From a virus, in UHGV virus genome UHGV-0121323: 11,692 nt of DNA, one strand, 5' to 3'. Below the pieces are notes generated by a model that was given only the letters and a program-made list of their open reading frames with translations, was not told the origin of the DNA and ran no database searches. The translations under genes were made by a program, and so were the position numbers. Position 1 is the stretch's first letter; every line of letters begins with the position of its first letter. This document shows positions 1-4,171 of the stretch, one piece after another.

Positions 1-27
1 CTTTCATATCCACCTCTGTTGTTTATG

Positions 28-56
28 CCAAAAATAAAGGCCGACTATGCGGCCTT
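28..56 (-). terminator. Intrinsic terminator closing the 55-aa ORF on the minus strand
   Basis: Inverted repeat AAGGCCG / CGGCCTT (37..43 and 50..56) with a 6-nt loop; on the minus strand the hairpin is followed by TATTTTTGG. It overlaps the stop codon of the 55..222 ORF. Confidence 0.5.
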
Positions 57-222
57 AAAATCCTGAATATTCGCGAAGAGATTCGATAATTTCCTCGCAG
101 TCGATAAGTAGTTCGTCAGGTTCATCTTCTCGATTTTTAAGTGCCTCAATGTTCCCAGCTAACTGGCGAAGCATCATTGCTTGCCATTCAGGGTCGAAGC
201 TGTCTGGTATTTCAATTTCCAT
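55..222 (-). CDS. Hypothetical acidic small protein (55 aa), pL-operon accessory gene
   Basis: ATG at 222 preceded by GAGGTG (revcomp of 226..231); translation MEIEIPDSFDPEWQAMMLRQLAGNIEALKNREDEPDELLIDCEEIIESLREYSGF; stop at 55..57, then the terminator. Below the 60-aa cut-off of the supplied ORF track. No family recognised. Confidence 0.45.
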   Translation of the reverse strand: MEIEIPDSFDPEWQAMMLRQLAGNIEALKNREDEPDELLIDCEEIIESLREYSGF

Positions 223-284
223 ATTTCACCTCAAATAAGTGGTTTGCTGCCAAAACAATGAACCATCAGGAAATTCCAGATAGT

Positions 285-509
285 TCATAATTCACTCTTC
301 AATACTTCCAACTTACTAATCGCCGATAGATATCCGCGCTGATAGGGCATCATCATTCCTTCGAGCTTGCCACTTCTTAACTCCTCCCTGAGCAATTGTA
401 TTGCTTGATCAATAACCTCTGCCTTAGCTTCCTTTATGGCTTGCTTGCGGGGCTTTGCTTTCTGCTTTGGCAGATTTCTCAAGCATGATGGAATGTATGT
501 CTGATTCAT
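285..509 (-). CDS. Hypothetical small protein (74 aa), pL-operon accessory gene
   Basis: Track ORF 285..512; the ATG at 509 sits 5 nt downstream of GAGGT, with an in-frame GTG immediately upstream. Lys/Glu-rich, helical-looking sequence. No family recognised. Confidence 0.5.
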   Translation of the reverse strand: MNQTYIPSCLRNLPKQKAKPRKQAIKEAKAEVIDQAIQLLREELRSGKLEGMMMPYQRGYLSAISKLEVLKSEL

Positions 510-692
510 CACTTACCTCGCTGTCAGTTGTTTTGATTTCCGGTAGCCTGCCGCGTAAATGGCTACGTTTGGCAGGCAAATACTTCCACTGCATTCATCT
601 GCCTTCTTGCAGCGAAGGCTTCCGAGTGATGCTGCTTTATCTGCTCTGACGCAACCAGAGAGCTTTAGCGCAATTTTTCGCGCCAGTCGCTG

Positions 693-785
693 CTATTGCA
701 TTGCCTGCTCACGTTGAGCCTGTCTGCGTGCTCTGCGGCGATTTCTGGCGTTATCGTCAGCCAGATATGTAATGACTACTGTCAT
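693..785 (-). CDS. Putative arginine-rich micro-protein (30 aa)
   Basis: ATG at 785 preceded by GGAGG (revcomp of 791..795) at 5-nt spacing; translation MTVVITYLADDNARNRRRARRQAQREQAMQ. The longer 65-aa track ORF (693..890) would overlap the upstream gene and lacks an RBS. Confidence 0.3.
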   Translation of the reverse strand: MTVVITYLADDNARNRRRARRQAQREQAMQ

Positions 786-840
786 GTTGACCTCCGATGA
801 TTGACTTTGGCGGTGTACTGCTTGCCGTTGTGGGTGACTG

Positions 841-1116
841 TCATGAGGCCTCCAAGCCAATGGCATCAGAGATAATCTGGAGCTTCTCAACTGAAACGCC
901 TTTTCCGTTGCCTACTGGCTTTTCCATCCAGTCGAGCGACACTAGTCGGCCGTCGGCGATAACACCGATATTGAAATCATCACAACCTGCTACTTCAAAT
1001 CCGTGAGAAATTGCCACTTCCCGCTTATCAAATCTTTCCAAATCTGAGGAATAACCAATGCCGTAACCGTGGTCGTTTGACCAAGCGTGCTGCTGGATAA
1101 CGATAAATTTTTGCAT
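841..1116 (-). CDS. Hypothetical protein (91 aa), pL-operon accessory gene
   Basis: Track ORF 841..1200, but the internal ATG at 1116 has a GGAGTGA Shine-Dalgarno (revcomp of 1119..1125) whereas the 1200 start follows a terminator with no RBS. Translation begins MQKFIVIQQHAWSNDHGYGIGY. No family recognised. Confidence 0.55.
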   Translation of the reverse strand: MQKFIVIQQHAWSNDHGYGIGYSSDLERFDKREVAISHGFEVAGCDDFNIGVIADGRLVSLDWMEKPVGNGKGVSVEKLQIISDAIGLEAS

Positions 1117-1239
1117 AATCACTCCGCCCGTAAGCTGGGCTTCTGAACGTTGAAACAAGACTTCTGCGCTATTGGGCGGTGGATGGCCGCCGGTTGTCAT
1201 AACTCACGCTCACTCGTTGGAATGAGCTGAGGTATGGCC

Positions 1240-1264
1240 GATAAAAAACCCGCCGGAGCGGGTT
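1240..1264 (-). terminator. Intrinsic terminator inside the pL operon (tL-like)
   Basis: Stem AACCCGC (1247..1253) / GCGGGTT (1258..1264), loop CGGA; on the minus strand it is followed by TTTTTTATC. It overlaps the stop codon of the 80-aa ORF. N-mediated antitermination would be expected to override it. Confidence 0.5.
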
Positions 1265-1505
1265 ATTCACACTTTGCATGCCTGACCGGCTTTAATTTCC
1301 ACTCAGTGGCCTTAAGCTCAATTTCCTTCCTGATTTCCTGATACGTTTTCACGGAGCCATCAGCGTTTTTATTGAACGGATTGAGCGTTTGATAAAACTT
1401 TTCCCGTCGTTTGCAGGCTTTACCGCATACGTCACACTTCCCTGATTTCTCAGCAAAAGTTGAGATCTCATCGAACCGAGTTGTTGTAATTCCACCCCAT
1501 CCCAT
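1263..1505 (-). CDS. Hypothetical Cys-containing small protein (80 aa)
   Basis: Track ORF; AGAGGGTAAGG lies upstream of the ATG at 1505; contains C-x2-C-x3-C (CDVCGKAC) and a C-terminal Cys, so a small metal-binding fold is possible. No family recognised. Confidence 0.55.
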   Translation of the reverse strand: MGWGGITTTRFDEISTFAEKSGKCDVCGKACKRREKFYQTLNPFNKNADGSVKTYQEIRKEIELKATEWKLKPVRHAKCE

Positions 1506-1548
1506 CGCCTTACCCTCTGTTTGTATCGTGAGCTAATAAAAAGGCCGC

Positions 1549-1812
1549 CTAAGCGACCAGTCCATCAATTACCTTTTCAACAACTCCAACCGCATCAATC
1601 AACTTCACAAGCCTCTCGTGCATCTCGTTTCTTTTCGATTTGAGTGCTTCAATTAGAAACTCCTGATCGGCGGCGCCTCTCCATTGGGTATTGTTAGCTG
1701 CAACAACAATCAAGTTAAATCCATGCAGCCCATGCGCTCCCAATAAGTTGTCTATGTCTCTTATGTTTGATTCCAAGTTTTCAATTTCTTGGAGTAATTT
1801 TTTAATATCCAT
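1549..1812 (-). CDS. Hypothetical protein (87 aa) immediately downstream of N
   Basis: Track ORF; GAGGTGAGG precedes the ATG at 1812; N-terminus is coiled-coil-like (MDIKKLLQEIENLESNIRDIDNLL). No family recognised. Confidence 0.55.
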   Translation of the reverse strand: MDIKKLLQEIENLESNIRDIDNLLGAHGLHGFNLIVVAANNTQWRGAADQEFLIEALKSKRNEMHERLVKLIDAVGVVEKVIDGLVA

Positions 1813-1850
1813 TGCCTCACCTCATAAGTTAATTAACGCGCCGTAACCGA

Positions 1851-2174
1851 TTAAATCAGCGGCGTCGATTTACCGCGGGATTTCTGCACCGCATGGATTT
1901 TGTTTCCGAACGGGTTAGCATCTTTGTACCAGGTGCGATGATTCTTGCGCTCAACAGCTTCAGCGCGTTTTTCCATCTCTTCCCGATACTCAGCCAGCAC
2001 CGTTAAATCAATCGGGTTCAGAGCGCTTTCTACGCGTGATTTCGGTTTGCGATTCAGCGAGAGAATAGGGCGGTTAACTGGTTTTGCGCTTACCCCAACC
2101 AACAGGGGATTTGCTGCTTTCCATTGAGCCTGTTTCTCTGCGCGACGTTCGCGGCGGCGTGTTTGTGCATCCAT
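1851..2174 (-). CDS. N: Antitermination protein N (lambda-type)
   Basis: Translation begins MDAQTRRRERRAEKQAQWKAANPLLVGVSAKPVNRPILSLNRKPKSRVESALNPIDLTVLAEY, which is the lambda N arginine-rich boxB-binding motif and N-terminal two-thirds as I remember them; the C-terminal ~45 aa differ from my memory of lambda N. AGGAGAA RBS; lies downstream of nutL and pL. Confidence 0.9.
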   Translation of the reverse strand: MDAQTRRRERRAEKQAQWKAANPLLVGVSAKPVNRPILSLNRKPKSRVESALNPIDLTVLAEYREEMEKRAEAVERKNHRTWYKDANPFGNKIHAVQKSRGKSTPLI

Positions 2175-2442
2175 CTGGATTCTCCTGCCAGTTAGCTTTG
2201 GTGGTGTGGTGGCTGGTAGTCTAGCTCCAGCTTGTTGAGTCTCATTCGGAGGGGTATAACCGGCACCCCAGCGATTTTTCCATGCGACAACGTGCGCGTT
2301 ATGGCGGCCTTATCGCCCGCGACTCCCCATCTCGTCCACGCTATTGCTAGCGTTGGGAGCGCTTCACCGCTCAACAGTAGGTAAGCACTTGCCAGTGACT
2401 AGCTGGCTTCACCACACCCCAAAGCCTTCTGCTTTGAATGCT

Positions 2443-2473
2443 GCCCTTCTTCAGGGCTAAATTTTTAAGAGCC
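2443..2473 (-). promoter_or_regulatory. nutL (boxA-like GGCTCTTA plus boxB GCCCTGAAGAAGGGC)
   Basis: Minus-strand sequence GGCTCTTAAAAATTTAGCCCTGAAGAAGGGCAGC; the boxB hairpin is GCCCTGAAGAAGGGC (2443..2457), matching the lambda nutL boxB as I remember it. Confidence 0.8.
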
Positions 2474-2512
2474 TCACCTTCATGGTGGTCAGTGCGTCCT
2501 GCTGATGGCTTA

Positions 2513-2541
2513 AAGATAACTTAGGTTATAGGTGTGGTCAA
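2513..2541 (-). promoter_or_regulatory. pL-type promoter (-35 TTGACC, 17-bp spacer, -10 TATCTT)
   Basis: On the minus strand TTGACC (2536..2541) and TATCTT (2513..2518) are separated by 17 bp; the downstream transcript start region CCATCAGCAGGACGCACTGACCACCATGAAGGTGA resembles the lambda pL leader from memory. Confidence 0.6.
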
Positions 2542-2554
2542 TAACCTAATTTAT
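2516..2554. promoter_or_regulatory. OL operators: two 14-bp sites of form ATAAC-N4-GTTAT overlapping pL
   Basis: ATAACTTAGGTTAT (2516..2529) and ATAACCTAATTTAT (2541..2554), centres 25 bp apart; a degenerate third copy ATAACAAAGGTAT lies at 2585..2597. Same motif as the OR sites. Confidence 0.5.
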
Positions 2555-2728
2555 ATTTTATGGTAAATAAGTTATAAGTGATGGATAACAAAGGTATTTT
2601 ATTTTTGTAAATGTTGCTGATTGATTGGTGTTTGAGGGCTTGCGTGCGGGGTGAAGGTGTTACCTTTGGCTTGATGCTTGTCTATGATGAGGATGGTTGA
2701 TTGGGTGGTGAACGGCAGGAAAAGAAAA

Positions 2729-2753
2729 CCCGGCGCTGAGGCCGGGTGTTTTT
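2729..2753. terminator. Hairpin terminator at the end of the cI transcription unit (tImm-like), potentially bidirectional
   Basis: CCCGGC (2729..2734) / GCCGGG (2741..2746) stem with a 6-nt loop; T-rich tract on both sides (TGTTTTT on plus, TTTTCTTTTCC on minus). Confidence 0.6.
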
Positions 2754-3048
2754 AGTCTTTTCTTTTGCTTAGCATTTCGTCGATTTCTAAGTCAATACGA
2801 TATTGATCTATTGCTTTTCTCTCGTTTGGGGTTGGTATTTTATACTGTTCAATTAGATCTGTTGTGTATTTTATTTCATCTAATGTGATTTTTATATCAG
2901 AGAGAATCTCTTTTATATCAATTATATGCTCTTCTTATTTTGCGCGATTAGAGCTATGTTCAATCATTTGAGATAGCTTTTTGCTAATGCTTAGCAAAAC
3001 AAAAAGAATGATGACCAAAACAACAACAAAAACTATCAGAAATTCCAT
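2752..3048 (-). pseudogene. Small membrane-protein gene at the cI-downstream (rexAB-equivalent) position, interrupted by an in-frame TAA; a 37-aa N-terminal transmembrane peptide (2935..3048) remains translatable
   Basis: ATG at 3048 with GGAGGG just upstream; translation MEFLIVFVVVLVIILFVLLSISKKLSQMIEHSSNRAK then TAA (plus 2935..2937), then 59 further open in-frame codons (EEHIIDIKEILSDIKITLDEIKYTTDLIEQYKIPTPNERKAIDQYRIDLEIDEMLSKRKD) with no ATG/GTG/TTG until near the end, finishing at TAA 2752..2754 directly before the terminator. The region is markedly AT-rich compared with its flanks. Confidence 0.4.
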
Positions 3049-3088: not shown

Positions 3089-3796
3089 TTACCAACTATG
3101 AGACGACCAGAATACTCTGCCAATAATCCTTACGGTTTCATGAAATTCATCTCTATCCATTACTTCATCCGGGTACTCTTCGCGATTTATTGATCTGATT
3201 ATCACCGATGTAGGGGTGGCGATTAATGTTTTTACTCGTAACAAATCAGACTGGCAAATAGCGTAGGTTTTACCATCTCTGATTGTGGTATCTTGCGTGT
3301 TAACACCAACAACATCGCCATCGTGAAGGGTTGGTTCCATGCTTTGCCCTACAACCCTAACTAGCTTGGCTGATCTTTCAGATACTCCCATCTTTTTCAG
3401 ATAGTGCTTTCTGAAAACCAAAGAGAACTCCGATGATTCCTCTAGCTCGCAGCTACCGCTTCCAGCTGAAAGCGAAACGTTAAGAAGAGGCAACGCAACA
3501 AACTCGTCATCGTTTCTTTTAATGTCTTCCCATACCACAGCTTTTAAAGATGACTCACGGACATTGGATGGTTCTTCATGTGCACCATCCCTCATTTCAC
3601 CAATACCAGAACTAAGCCATTCAGGACGCACTTTTAAAGCATTGGCTAATTCAACCATCTTGCGAGATCCGTTTGTTTTACCGGACGACATCTTCTGTAT
3701 GGCTGGCTGAGATATTCCAACCATGTCAGCAAGCTGTGATTGTGATACCCCTGCTGAGCTCATGGCTGCATTTAGTCTTTCTGCGAATGTTTTCAT
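3089..3796 (-). CDS. cI: CI-type prophage repressor (N-terminal HTH, C-terminal LexA/S24-like autocleavage domain)
   Basis: Translation from the ATG at 3796: MKTFAERLNAAMSSAGVSQSQLADMVGISQPAIQKMSSGK... (HTH), with a C-terminal region containing GQSMEPTLHDGDVV (Ser nucleophile context) and a downstream Lys (LLRVKTLI). Divergent from the cro gene across an operator cluster. The track start at 3826 is a TTG inside the operators and is rejected. Confidence 0.85.
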   Translation of the reverse strand: MKTFAERLNAAMSSAGVSQSQLADMVGISQPAIQKMSSGKTNGSRKMVELANALKVRPEWLSSGIGEMRDGAHEEPSNVRESSLKAVVWEDIKRNDDEFVALPLLNVSLSAGSGSCELEESSEFSLVFRKHYLKKMGVSERSAKLVRVVGQSMEPTLHDGDVVGVNTQDTTIRDGKTYAICQSDLLRVKTLIATPTSVIIRSINREEYPDEVMDRDEFHETVRIIGRVFWSSHSW

Positions 3797-3808
3797 ACCC
3801 ACAAATCT

Positions 3809-3871
3809 ATAACTACGGTTATCCAAAGTAAAATAACAAAGGTTATTGCTATTTTTTATAACTTGAGTTAT
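3809..3871. promoter_or_regulatory. OR operators: three 14-bp sites ATAAC-N4-GTTAT
   Basis: ATAACTACGGTTAT (3809..3822), ATAACAAAGGTTAT (3833..3846), ATAACTTGAGTTAT (3858..3871); centre-to-centre spacing 24 and 25 bp, between the divergent cI and cro genes. An abutting inverted pair GTTATAAC sits at 3878..3885. Confidence 0.6.
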
Positions 3872-3907: not shown

Positions 3908-4132
3908 ATGAATTTAGTAATTCAACGAGCCTTGAAAATTGTCGGTAGCCAAAAGCGCCTTGCCGACAAGTGTGGTGTAACGCAGCCAGCAGTACACAAA
4001 TGGCTGAAAGGCGGGTTGGTCTCTCCAGAGAAAGTTACCGCCATCGTTAACGCCACTGGAGGGCAGATCAAGGCTTACGAAATTCGCCCCGATTTGCCAC
4101 ACCTGTTTCCAAAACCGAATCAGGCAGCATAA
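3908..4132 (+). CDS. cro: Cro-like small HTH repressor (74 aa)
   Basis: AAGAGG (3895..3900) lies 7 nt upstream of the ATG at 3908; translation MNLVIQRALKIVGSQKRLADKCGVTQPAVHKWLKGG... carries an HTH; first rightward gene after OR/pR. The track start at 3887 has no RBS. Confidence 0.75.
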   Translation: MNLVIQRALKIVGSQKRLADKCGVTQPAVHKWLKGGLVSPEKVTAIVNATGGQIKAYEIRPDLPHLFPKPNQAA

Positions 4133-4139
4133 ATAACCC

Positions 4140-4171
4140 CGCTCTTACACATCCCAGCCCTGAAAAAGGGC
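4140..4171 (+). promoter_or_regulatory. nutR (boxA CGCTCTTA plus boxB GCCCTGAAAAAGGGC)
   Basis: CGCTCTTACACATCCCAGCCCTGAAAAAGGGC; boxA 4140..4147 and boxB hairpin 4157..4171, followed by a tR1/cII-leader-like segment that matches lambda as I remember it. Confidence 0.8.

Follow-up and report, generated by a model that had tools for sequence, protein, structure and literature searches.

The six small open reading frames (ORFs) that follow the N antiterminator gene in the virus genome UHGV-0121323 raise the question of what kind of genes this phage carries at the start of its leftward early transcript. The original prediction described them as six uncharacterised genes (87, 80, 91, 30, 74 and 55 aa) and proposed them as candidates for counter-defence or host takeover. 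The 11,692-nucleotide stretch of DNA in which they lie is referred to here as the window. All six ORFs were found on the minus strand at the predicted sizes, each with its own Shine-Dalgarno sequence of the GGAG/GAGG type 5–10 nt upstream. The interval forms the promoter-proximal stretch of the pL delayed-early operon. The phage is temperate and P22/lambda-like and comes from human gut metagenomes, the window being contig ERZ651884 NODE_2684. The interval probably consists of exchangeable single-gene cassettes joined by recombination, together with a decayed second N gene, and would encode five dispensable accessory proteins, made early and directed at targets in the host or its defences.

Transcription signals of the early left operon

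The signals located in the window were as follows.

2513..2541, minus strand: pL-like promoter, TTGACC-17-TATCTT (promoter prediction)
2443..2473, minus strand: nutL, with a boxA-like element GGCTCTTA at 2466..2473 and a lambda-type boxB GCCCTGAAGAAGGGC at 2443..2457
4157..4171, plus strand: boxB of nutR, lambda-type, matching that of nutL
1851..2174, minus strand: N antiterminator gene, 107 aa, lambda-type arginine-rich motif (Pfam N36, 3.7e-26; PHROG 271)
1535..1558, minus strand: intrinsic terminator across the stop codon of the 87-aa gene (terminator scan)
1240..1264, minus strand: intrinsic terminator 3' of the 80-aa gene (terminator scan)
28..56, minus strand: intrinsic terminator at the end of the block (terminator scan)

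Read leftward, the order is pL, lambda-type nutL, N and then the three intrinsic terminators. The N gene at 1851..2174 is the cognate N for the nut sites of the window. A terminator scan of positions 1..3000 on both strands gave 7 sites against 4.0 ± 2.4 expected from shuffled sequences, and the three minus-strand terminators listed above, which the scan placed at 1558..1543, 1264..1247 and 56..37, each have a G+C-rich hairpin with a run of U after it on the transcribed strand. Those at 1240..1264 and 28..56 had been predicted and were confirmed, whereas the one at 1535..1558 had been overlooked. The gene beyond the closing terminator starts at position 7 and is also directed leftward. An Rfam scan of 1..3000 gave no match above threshold.

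Apart from the pL-like promoter, no sigma-70-like site was predicted in 1..3000. As no internal promoter was predicted among the N-distal genes, they should need pL and N to be expressed, which also fits lytic-phase functions. Their proposed position on the pL transcript, distal to N and behind terminators, was borne out. N-modified RNA polymerase reading through the terminators would be the sole route to expression of these genes, which would then be on after infection or induction and off in a lysogen.

The arrangement resembles the accessory region between N and cIII in lambda (ral, ea10/ssb, sieB, git) and P22 (ral, gene 17) in position, orientation and N antitermination through intrinsic terminators. 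The genes of that region are small, non-essential and exchangeable, and those of the window can be likened to them; ral itself (PF11058, 2.2e-48) occupies the slot of the 55-aa gene in two sibling phages, L019 and L074.

Conserved genes and exchangeable slots

The coding features other than N, and the leader of one of them, are listed below from the N-proximal end.

1549..1812, minus strand: 87-aa gene, acidic (pI 5.3), directly 3' of N
1263..1505, minus strand: 80-aa cassette gene, basic (pI 9.3)
1117..1239, minus strand: conserved structured non-coding leader
841..1116, minus strand: 91-aa cassette gene (phrog_26897), acidic alpha/beta domain (model pLDDT 91)
285..509, minus strand: 74-aa gene (phrog_5305), basic, starting 3 nt past the stop of the second N gene (N')
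55..222, minus strand: 55-aa cassette gene (phrog_7393), very acidic (pI 4.05, net charge about −12.5)

Judged by their sequence conservation, these five ORFs are real genes. Their family alignments contain invariant motifs, pN/pS values lie between 0.08 and 0.32, and PHROG matches range from 1e-11 to 5e-38. Four of the five matched PHROG families, all of unknown function; the 87-aa gene matched none. None of the five proteins had a match in Pfam, NCBIfam, PADLOC or PDB sequences, and scans of all ORFs against Pfam, NCBIfam, PADLOC and PHROG returned nothing beyond unknown-function PHROGs and N-like matches. Single-sequence searches of the PDB with all five proteins gave nothing significant. 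Nor did profile searches with the 87-, 80- and 91-aa families, save for a local zinc-knuckle resemblance in the 80-aa family, and no PDB fold relative was found for the predicted models of the 80- and 91-aa proteins. The five genes were uncharacterised in every library tried, and unlike the lambda and P22 genes they encode proteins without homology to Ral, Ea10, CIII, Kil or Gam (no Pfam match), as had been predicted. The exception is the 30-aa ORF, the one of the six that proved homologous to a known lambdoid early protein, being a piece of an N gene.

Two of the genes are conserved anchors: the 87-aa gene beside the lambda-type N, and the 74-aa gene beside the HK620-type N. The 87-aa gene adjoins N in every locus and has pN/pS of 0.14–0.32. 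Its family is narrow, occurring in prophages of Citrobacter, Enterobacter and E. coli, and all 35 of its clusters are named 'hypothetical'; among 50,697 isolated phages there were only two matches, both distant. The protein had no match in PHROG, Pfam or PDB. The 74-aa gene is the conserved partner of the HK620-type N in mEpX2, phi296 and mEp213.

The 80-, 91- and 55-aa genes are occupants of hypervariable single-gene slots. We found 14 unrelated families in the slot 3' of the 87-aa gene (27 loci), 13 families, ral included, in that 3' of the 74-aa gene (35 loci), and 6 families in that 3' of the 80-aa gene (14 loci). The linkers that open the slots, each composed of a terminator or spacer, a Shine-Dalgarno sequence and the ATG, are identical up to the ATG, and the sequence diverges from the second codon on; the slot after the 87-aa gene is opened by a conserved 43-nt linker with terminator, Shine-Dalgarno sequence and ATG. 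Variable genes between conserved flanks define accessory regions, one of which contains ral (Silas et al., 10.1101/2023.04.06.535777; PMC12373910). The window shares this variable content between conserved flanks, with unrelated genes alternating at one locus. This locus is a hotspot for the swapping of genes, in the manner of ordinary lambdoid mosaicism.

The 80-aa protein was predicted to form a beta-hairpin with a CxxC knuckle at its turn and a C-terminal HxxC. The original prediction had pointed to a CxxCxxxC cluster, which mis-specified the ligands: only 8 of 19 homologues retain C31, and the conserved set is C24-x2-C27 with H/C76-x2-C79, all four positions being present in 15 of the 19 and jointly lost in the other 4. 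The family also has the invariant motif FxQTLNPFNKxxDGxxK. Most likely it is a small binding protein stabilised by zinc. A relationship with Ral or Lar was rejected (hhalign probability 0.3% for Ral and 2.6% for Lar), and the Ral profile PF11058 gave no Pfam match with either the 80- or the 55-aa protein. The 80-aa gene was also found in another slot, 3' of a 70-aa paralogue of the 74-aa gene.

The 91-aa family is marked by the invariant motif DDFNIG, and pN/pS of the gene is 0.08–0.14. The longest reading of this ORF is 119 aa with a start at 1200. That reading was rejected, as homologues begin with MQKF or MMQKF and the extension overlaps the non-coding leader at 1117..1239, which accounts for the spurious 28 N-terminal codons. 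The leader is about 82% identical to the sequence upstream of kil in Bievrevirus phages and is related to a terminator-bearing region of HK639. The RNA fold of 1100..1270, a stretch that includes the terminator at 1240..1264, gave z = −3.8.

Candidate functions of the cassette proteins

A counter-defence or host-takeover role for the cassette proteins is plausible. Several occupants of the ral-containing accessory region counter defence or trigger cell death (Silas et al., 10.1101/2023.04.06.535777; PMC12373910). The five proteins of the window would be dispensable accessory early proteins acting on host or defence targets. No ORF showed a direct tie to a defence system, so the suggestion is drawn from position. 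The best leads would be the 55-aa protein, very acidic and in the ral slot, whose other occupants in sibling phages include DUF7446 and Nmad5, and the DDFNIG domain of the 91-aa protein, which in another protein is joined to a Lar-like restriction-alleviation domain. The fusion was seen in the protein P0161, where a Lar-like domain (Lar, the Rac prophage restriction alleviation protein; PF14354, PHROG 599) is followed by a coiled coil and the DDFNIG domain; it is encoded in a prophage early-left operon, where a separate, stand-alone Lar gene lies next to it. Unlike Lar, the 91-aa protein of the window has no Lar domain.

A search for homologues on plasmids, used as a stand-in for the anti-defence islands of leading regions, gave one for the 91-aa protein, on a non-mobilisable E. 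coli plasmid of 40.9 kb, and one for the 80-aa protein, on a plasmid of Tsukamurella; the 55-aa protein had none. No peptide of the window occurred in the supplements of two accessory-gene screen papers by Silas et al.

It is possible, if less probable, that the five proteins regulate phage development or host physiology instead, in the manner of CIII, Kil or Ea8.5 (lysis-lysogeny, division, recombination). In sibling phages cIII, kil/kilR, gam, erf and abc2 lie slightly farther downstream in the same operon, YdaE-like and KilR genes normally lie just downstream of the 91-aa gene, and the 87- and 74-aa genes are conserved N-adjoining anchors rather than swappable cassettes. Against this, none of the proteins is homologous to a known regulator such as CIII, Kil, KilR or Gam, and the extreme turnover in the slots of the 80-, 91- and 55-aa genes fits arms-race genes better than core regulators.

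For the 91-aa protein, the NCBI product name of its entire 90%-identity cluster is 'antitoxin', and the toxic FtsZ inhibitor KilR is encoded two genes downstream of the 91-aa gene in many phages. Membership of a toxin-antitoxin pair is nevertheless quite improbable. The protein had no Pfam or NCBIfam match at E ≤ 1 and no sequence or fold relative among antitoxins in the PDB. No toxin gene adjoins it in the window, its neighbours being the terminator with leader on one side and a 13-codon stub followed by N' on the other, and no kil or kilR was called downstream in the phage lineage of the window (L020). Elsewhere the gene has varied neighbours, and its domain often forms the C-terminal module of prophage proteins of 190–360 aa, unlike classical antitoxins. 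With no family model, fold match or partner gene, we rejected the label.

Very improbable, too, is that the genes are lysogen-expressed morons for prophage defence or superinfection exclusion, comparable to sieB or rexAB. Such genes do occur in immunity-proximal regions of lambdoid phages, and sibling loci carry BstA, a Panacea-domain protein and YafO in the slot between cI and pL. That known defence slot, however, is on the opposite side of pL, downstream of cI. Every ORF considered here is co-oriented with pL behind N and three terminators, with no internal promoter predicted, and PADLOC gave no significant match for any ORF (best E = 0.015, over 14 residues).

The second N gene and the recombination scar

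The remaining ORF of the original six lies within a second N gene, beside a recombination junction.

513..785, minus strand: N' pseudogene, HK620-type N, 90 aa when intact (98% nucleotide identity)
693..782, minus strand: 30-aa arginine-rich ORF, codons 1–30 of N'
782..844, minus strand: recombination scar, the 13-codon front of a 52-aa YdaE-like gene (MTVTHNGKQYTAK) joined to sequence from upstream of an HK620-type N

The original prediction had taken the 30-aa ORF for an independent gene of an arginine-rich peptide. It is not a gene: it is the leftover RNA-binding motif of an inactivated second N. Residues 1–30 are identical to those of the N proteins of HK620 and mEp213 (PHROG 271 at 5.1e-9), and the DNA of N' is 98% identical to both N genes, with one GAG to TAG change, an amber at codon 31 (693..695), as the single interruption. 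N' belongs to the HK620/mEp213 gp47/H19B-21 group (Pfam N_peptide PF25694, PHROG 271; intact 90-aa sibling proteins match N_peptide), and shares with HK620 N the arginine-rich motif and the C-terminal tail LPNVAIYAAGYRKSKQLTAR. Unlike members of that group, it is the second N of its operon, lies behind two terminators, has no cognate boxB and is cut short, so that the region that engages NusA and RNA polymerase is lost and N' does not qualify as a full-length N. A search of the window for HK620-type boxB that tolerated up to 3 mismatches gave none; lambda-type boxB was present at nutL and nutR only, which leaves N' without a cognate nut site.

The amber allele was present in three independent assemblies of one phage, on which ground sequencing error was rejected despite the approximately 4x coverage of the contig. 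Of 5,426 complete E. coli genomes, 279 matched a 61-nt probe across the site, and none of these had the allele. The other 59 codons of N' are in frame and unchanged, which indicates that the mutation is recent. Short N peptides (lambda N residues 1–22) bind boxB RNA in vitro. That the 30-aa ORF might itself act as an RNA-binding decoy or modulator, for which this binding and the retention of the Shine-Dalgarno sequence, ATG and full arginine-rich motif can be cited, is barely credible, as a cognate boxB is missing from the window, the stop arose by one private substitution confined to a single phage lineage, and the intact 90-aa protein is kept by the nearest siblings (99.6% identity) and more than 80 other phages.

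The scar junction was placed at about 806..815, at the microhomology CACCGCCAAAG. The exact junction between the 91-aa gene and N' gave 0 matches in IMG/VR, and none of 5,426 complete E. coli genomes contained the junction. Recombination between two different pL operons left both scars, the YdaE-like stub and the second N.

Siblings sharing the pL/OL sequence of the window also share most of its immunity region, at 97% identity. Two siblings, L021 and L023, have both N genes intact and an HK620-type nut cassette at the nutL position. A more ambitious reading is that tandem N and N' form a working 'two-key' antitermination module and that at least one cassette protein is a new restriction-alleviation or counter-defence factor; we consider this unlikely. 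If it were true, a phage with both N types would accept either nut cassette of about 80 bp, which would widen the range of recombinant immunity regions open to it. L021 and L023, with the pL/OL of the window and HK620-type nutL and nutR, would illustrate such exchange, and under the two-key arrangement an unused N would decay, as in the window.

Returning to the reading that we prefer, of exchangeable cassettes and a decayed second N, the locus is mainly a well-documented case of ordinary lambdoid mosaicism. It brings two corrections: what had been taken for one of the genes is part of a pseudogene, and 'antitoxin' as an NCBI product name found no support in our analysis. The tandem-N lineage can be regarded as a small natural experiment on the exchange of N and nut specificity, in which a shared pL/OL is combined with two N genes and either type of nut site, and the non-cognate N has been caught decaying.

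Organization of the leftward early operon

The sequence of the window belongs to a lambdoid temperate phage and comprises its immunity and early region; exact protein matching assigned it to metagenome contig ERZ651884 NODE_2684_length_11692 (L027). A cI-like repressor gene is followed on the minus strand by a pL-like promoter, a lambda-type nutL and N.

3089..3826, minus strand, cI-like repressor gene
2541..2513, minus strand, pL-like promoter (promoter prediction)
2443..2457, minus strand, boxB GCCCTGAAGAAGGGC of the lambda-type nutL, which also has a boxA-like GGCTCTTA
1851..2174, minus strand, N (Pfam N36, 3.7e-26)

All six small ORFs of the original prediction were found with the expected sizes (87, 80, 91, 30, 74 and 55 aa), each preceded by a Shine-Dalgarno sequence, and the two hairpin terminators proposed with them were confirmed on the minus strand. 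An additional intrinsic terminator, at 1558..1543 on the same strand, overlaps the 87-aa ORF at its stop codon. Prediction of sigma-70-like promoters over 1..3000 returned nothing besides pL; no promoter was predicted for the 87-, 80-, 91-, 74- and 55-aa genes themselves, which are placed beyond N and three intrinsic terminators. These five would be delayed-early genes, produced only when RNA polymerase is taken past the terminators by lambda-type N that has loaded at nutL.

The 91-aa gene is separated from the second terminator by a conserved non-coding leader (1117..1239, minus strand). Many Bievrevirus phages and prophages have DNA about 82% identical to 1114..1236 upstream of their kil gene, and the region next to this stretch matched HK639 DNA that bears a terminator. 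Folding of the 171 nt at 1100..1270, terminator included, gave z = -3.8, and the leader 1117..1239 had no match in Rfam.

A 37-aa strongly hydrophobic ORF (MEFLIVFVVVLVIILFVLLSISKK...; 2935..3048, minus strand) was located between cI, which it directly follows, and a bidirectional terminator (2728..2747), in lambda's rex slot. This slot appears to be a hot spot of lysogen-expressed defence, because sibling loci carry BstA_C, SocA_Panacea, YafO, DUF6932 or P63C genes there.

Families, slots and possible functions of the five genes

All five genes have conserved homologues.

Families and conservation of the five small genes
87 aa: no PHROG; 35 clusters in Citrobacter, Enterobacter and E. coli, all 'hypothetical'; pN/pS 0.14-0.32
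80 aa: phrog_35236 (8e-11); 24 clusters; invariant FxQTLNPFNKxxDGxxK motif
91 aa: phrog_26897 (1e-30); 27 clusters; pN/pS 0.08-0.14
74 aa: phrog_5305 (5e-38); too few substitutions for pN/pS
55 aa: phrog_7393 (5e-24); pI 4.05, net charge about -12.5

Two distant matches to the 87-aa gene were present among 50,697 isolated phages. None of the five proteins matched Pfam, NCBIfam, PADLOC or PDB sequences at a meaningful level, and the cysteine motif ascribed earlier to the 80-aa protein had to be corrected.

After the 87-aa gene, the next ORF begins 43 nt past the stop codon in 22 of 27 loci. This 43-nt linker, made up of terminator, Shine-Dalgarno and ATG, does not vary in most of these loci, and the sequences begin to differ at the second codon, creating a slot that holds 14 unrelated families in the 27 loci, the 80-aa gene among them. 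In 14 loci, the slot after the 80-aa gene was occupied by 6 families, with the 91-aa gene as one of them; this slot lies beyond the second terminator and a conserved, structured leader. A conserved 62-nt linker follows the 74-aa gene and leads to a slot with 13 unrelated families in 35 loci, whose occupants are the 55-aa gene, Ral (PF11058, 2e-48), DUF7446, Nmad5 and several unknowns. Unlike these slot genes, the 87- and 74-aa genes are anchors, each bound to its own N type. The five genes constitute a new set of members of the lambdoid pL accessory-region cassettes.

Many unrelated slot proteins in L001, L005, L007, L008, L019, L031 and L064 end in ...KAA or ...RAA. These shared ends suggest a right-hand cassette boundary in the last codons, overlapping the shared terminator stem AAGGCGGCC....

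A 70-aa paralogue of the 74-aa protein (50% identity) is encoded in the early-left operon of L012-L014, L017 (3719..3943) and L005 (4657..4869), loci in which no N gene was called. In L005 it precedes the 91-aa gene by about 350 nt; in the other loci it lies directly upstream of the 80-aa gene, which there occupies another slot. The 74-/70-aa family may have a core early role.

The five proteins would be dispensable, often exchanged accessory proteins with host or defence targets. Their proposal as counter-defence or host-takeover candidates was a reasonable positional inference and is backed by the slot analysis and one domain fusion, except that one of the six ORFs is a fragment of an N pseudogene. 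The extremely acidic 55-aa protein occupies the slot shared with ral. When a profile of the 91-aa family was searched exhaustively, 337 clusters were found at E <= 0.001, and the domain is often the C-terminal module of 190-360-aa fusion proteins, several with coiled-coil-like linker repeats. In the fusion protein P0161, a Lar-like restriction-alleviation domain (PF14354, 6e-10; PHROG 599, 1e-10) forms the N-terminal part; the P0161 gene lies in prophage early-left operons, where it adjoins erf, dam and a stand-alone Lar gene. The shared ral slot and the Lar fusion are hints by association. The plasmid collection contained no homologue of the 55-aa protein and one each of the 91- and 80-aa proteins. 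The peptides are not in the supplements of a published accessory-gene screen covering the ral region (PMC12373910; 10.1101/2023.04.06.535777).

Counter-defence or host-takeover activity in at least one of the five has close to an even chance. Regulation of phage development or host physiology, of the CIII or Kil kind, is the main alternative and is rather less probable; a specific anti-restriction role of the 55-aa protein is doubtful. Lysogen-expressed defence is unlikely for genes at these positions beyond N, as is a true antitoxin.

A second N gene and its origin

The 30-aa arginine-rich ORF was expected to encode a nucleic-acid-binding peptide, and this fits an N motif, but it is not a separate gene. 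In a megablast search of isolated phages, 513..815 had about 98% identity with N of HK620, HK630 and mEp213 (gp47). Translation of 513..785 gave a complete 90-aa HK620-type N (N') interrupted by a single in-frame stop, and the arginine-rich stretch RNRRRARRQAQREQ is therefore the boxB-binding motif of an N protein. N is an already known early protein of lambdoid phages, and N' is a pseudogene. Codon 31 is TAG here versus GAG or GAA in HK620, mEp213 and all other relatives. The amber allele is common to L020, L025 and L027, three independent assemblies of the same phage (99.98-100% identical), so an assembly error was rejected; the closest siblings (L022, L024 and L026, 99.6% identical) have GAG. 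Of 5,426 complete E. coli genomes, 279 were matched by a 61-nt probe spanning this codon, and none of these had the amber (best identity 98.4%). N' lacks a cognate site in the window, because nutL and nutR alike have lambda-type boxB and no HK620-type boxB was found with up to 3 mismatches allowed. A functional 30-aa peptide is unlikely.

The block N-87-80-91-N'-74 is essentially identical throughout the lineage (L020-L027). Directly after the 91-aa gene, a 20-codon ORF (782..844, minus strand) encodes MTVTHNGKQYTAK|VNHRRST*. A 52-aa YdaE-like gene, the normal successor of the 91-aa gene, as in L013, supplies the first 13 codons of this ORF, which marks the recombination junction that brought in a second segment of pL operon after the 91-aa gene. 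Homology to the '91-aa, YdaE, KilR' operon stops at 806 and homology to the HK620-type N region starts at 815, the two overlapping in the microhomology CACCGCCAAAG; two different pL operons were thus fused about 30 nt ahead of the start of N'. This junction was found neither in the 5,426 complete E. coli genomes nor in IMG/VR. Of the 80 best-matching IMG/VR loci that carry HK620-type N, mEp213 alone has tandem N genes. Its junction is different and farther upstream, so tandem N genes have at least two independent origins.

In mEp213, a one-mismatch HK620-type boxB (CCCTCCGAAATGCGGG) lies about 370 nt upstream of the second N, within a 470-nt gap (alignment columns 108-126). In L043 (Escherichia sp. 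E1V33), N (1636..1920) is apparently chimeric: residues 1-66 are of HK620 type (92% identity), and the C-terminal part after them is of lambda type (56% identity to residues 67-105). This points to recombination within N genes.

Swapped nut cassettes in sibling phages

The siblings L021 and L023 have the same pL/OL sequence as the window and both N genes intact. Their nutL cassette of about 80 bp and their nutR are of HK620 type (CCGCCGAAATGCGG). Short linkers, AGCCATCAGCAGGACGC and GGCTTTGGGGTG.GTGAAG, border the nutL cassette and are kept in both nut types.

5719..5732 and 3979..3992, HK620-type nut sites of L021 and L023
2443..2473 and 4157..4171, lambda-type nut sites of the window

N' would be the working antiterminator in L021 and L023, and lambda-type N that of the window, in whose lineage the unused N' has decayed. 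N' is placed beyond two terminators in L021 and L023, and therefore its start-up would need leaky read-through; alternatively, the HK620 boxB may be cross-recognised there by lambda-type N. The lineage with tandem N genes and nut swaps, though no categorical novelty, is a side result of the analysis that is more unusual than the cassettes. The possession of two N genes may make nut swaps viable.
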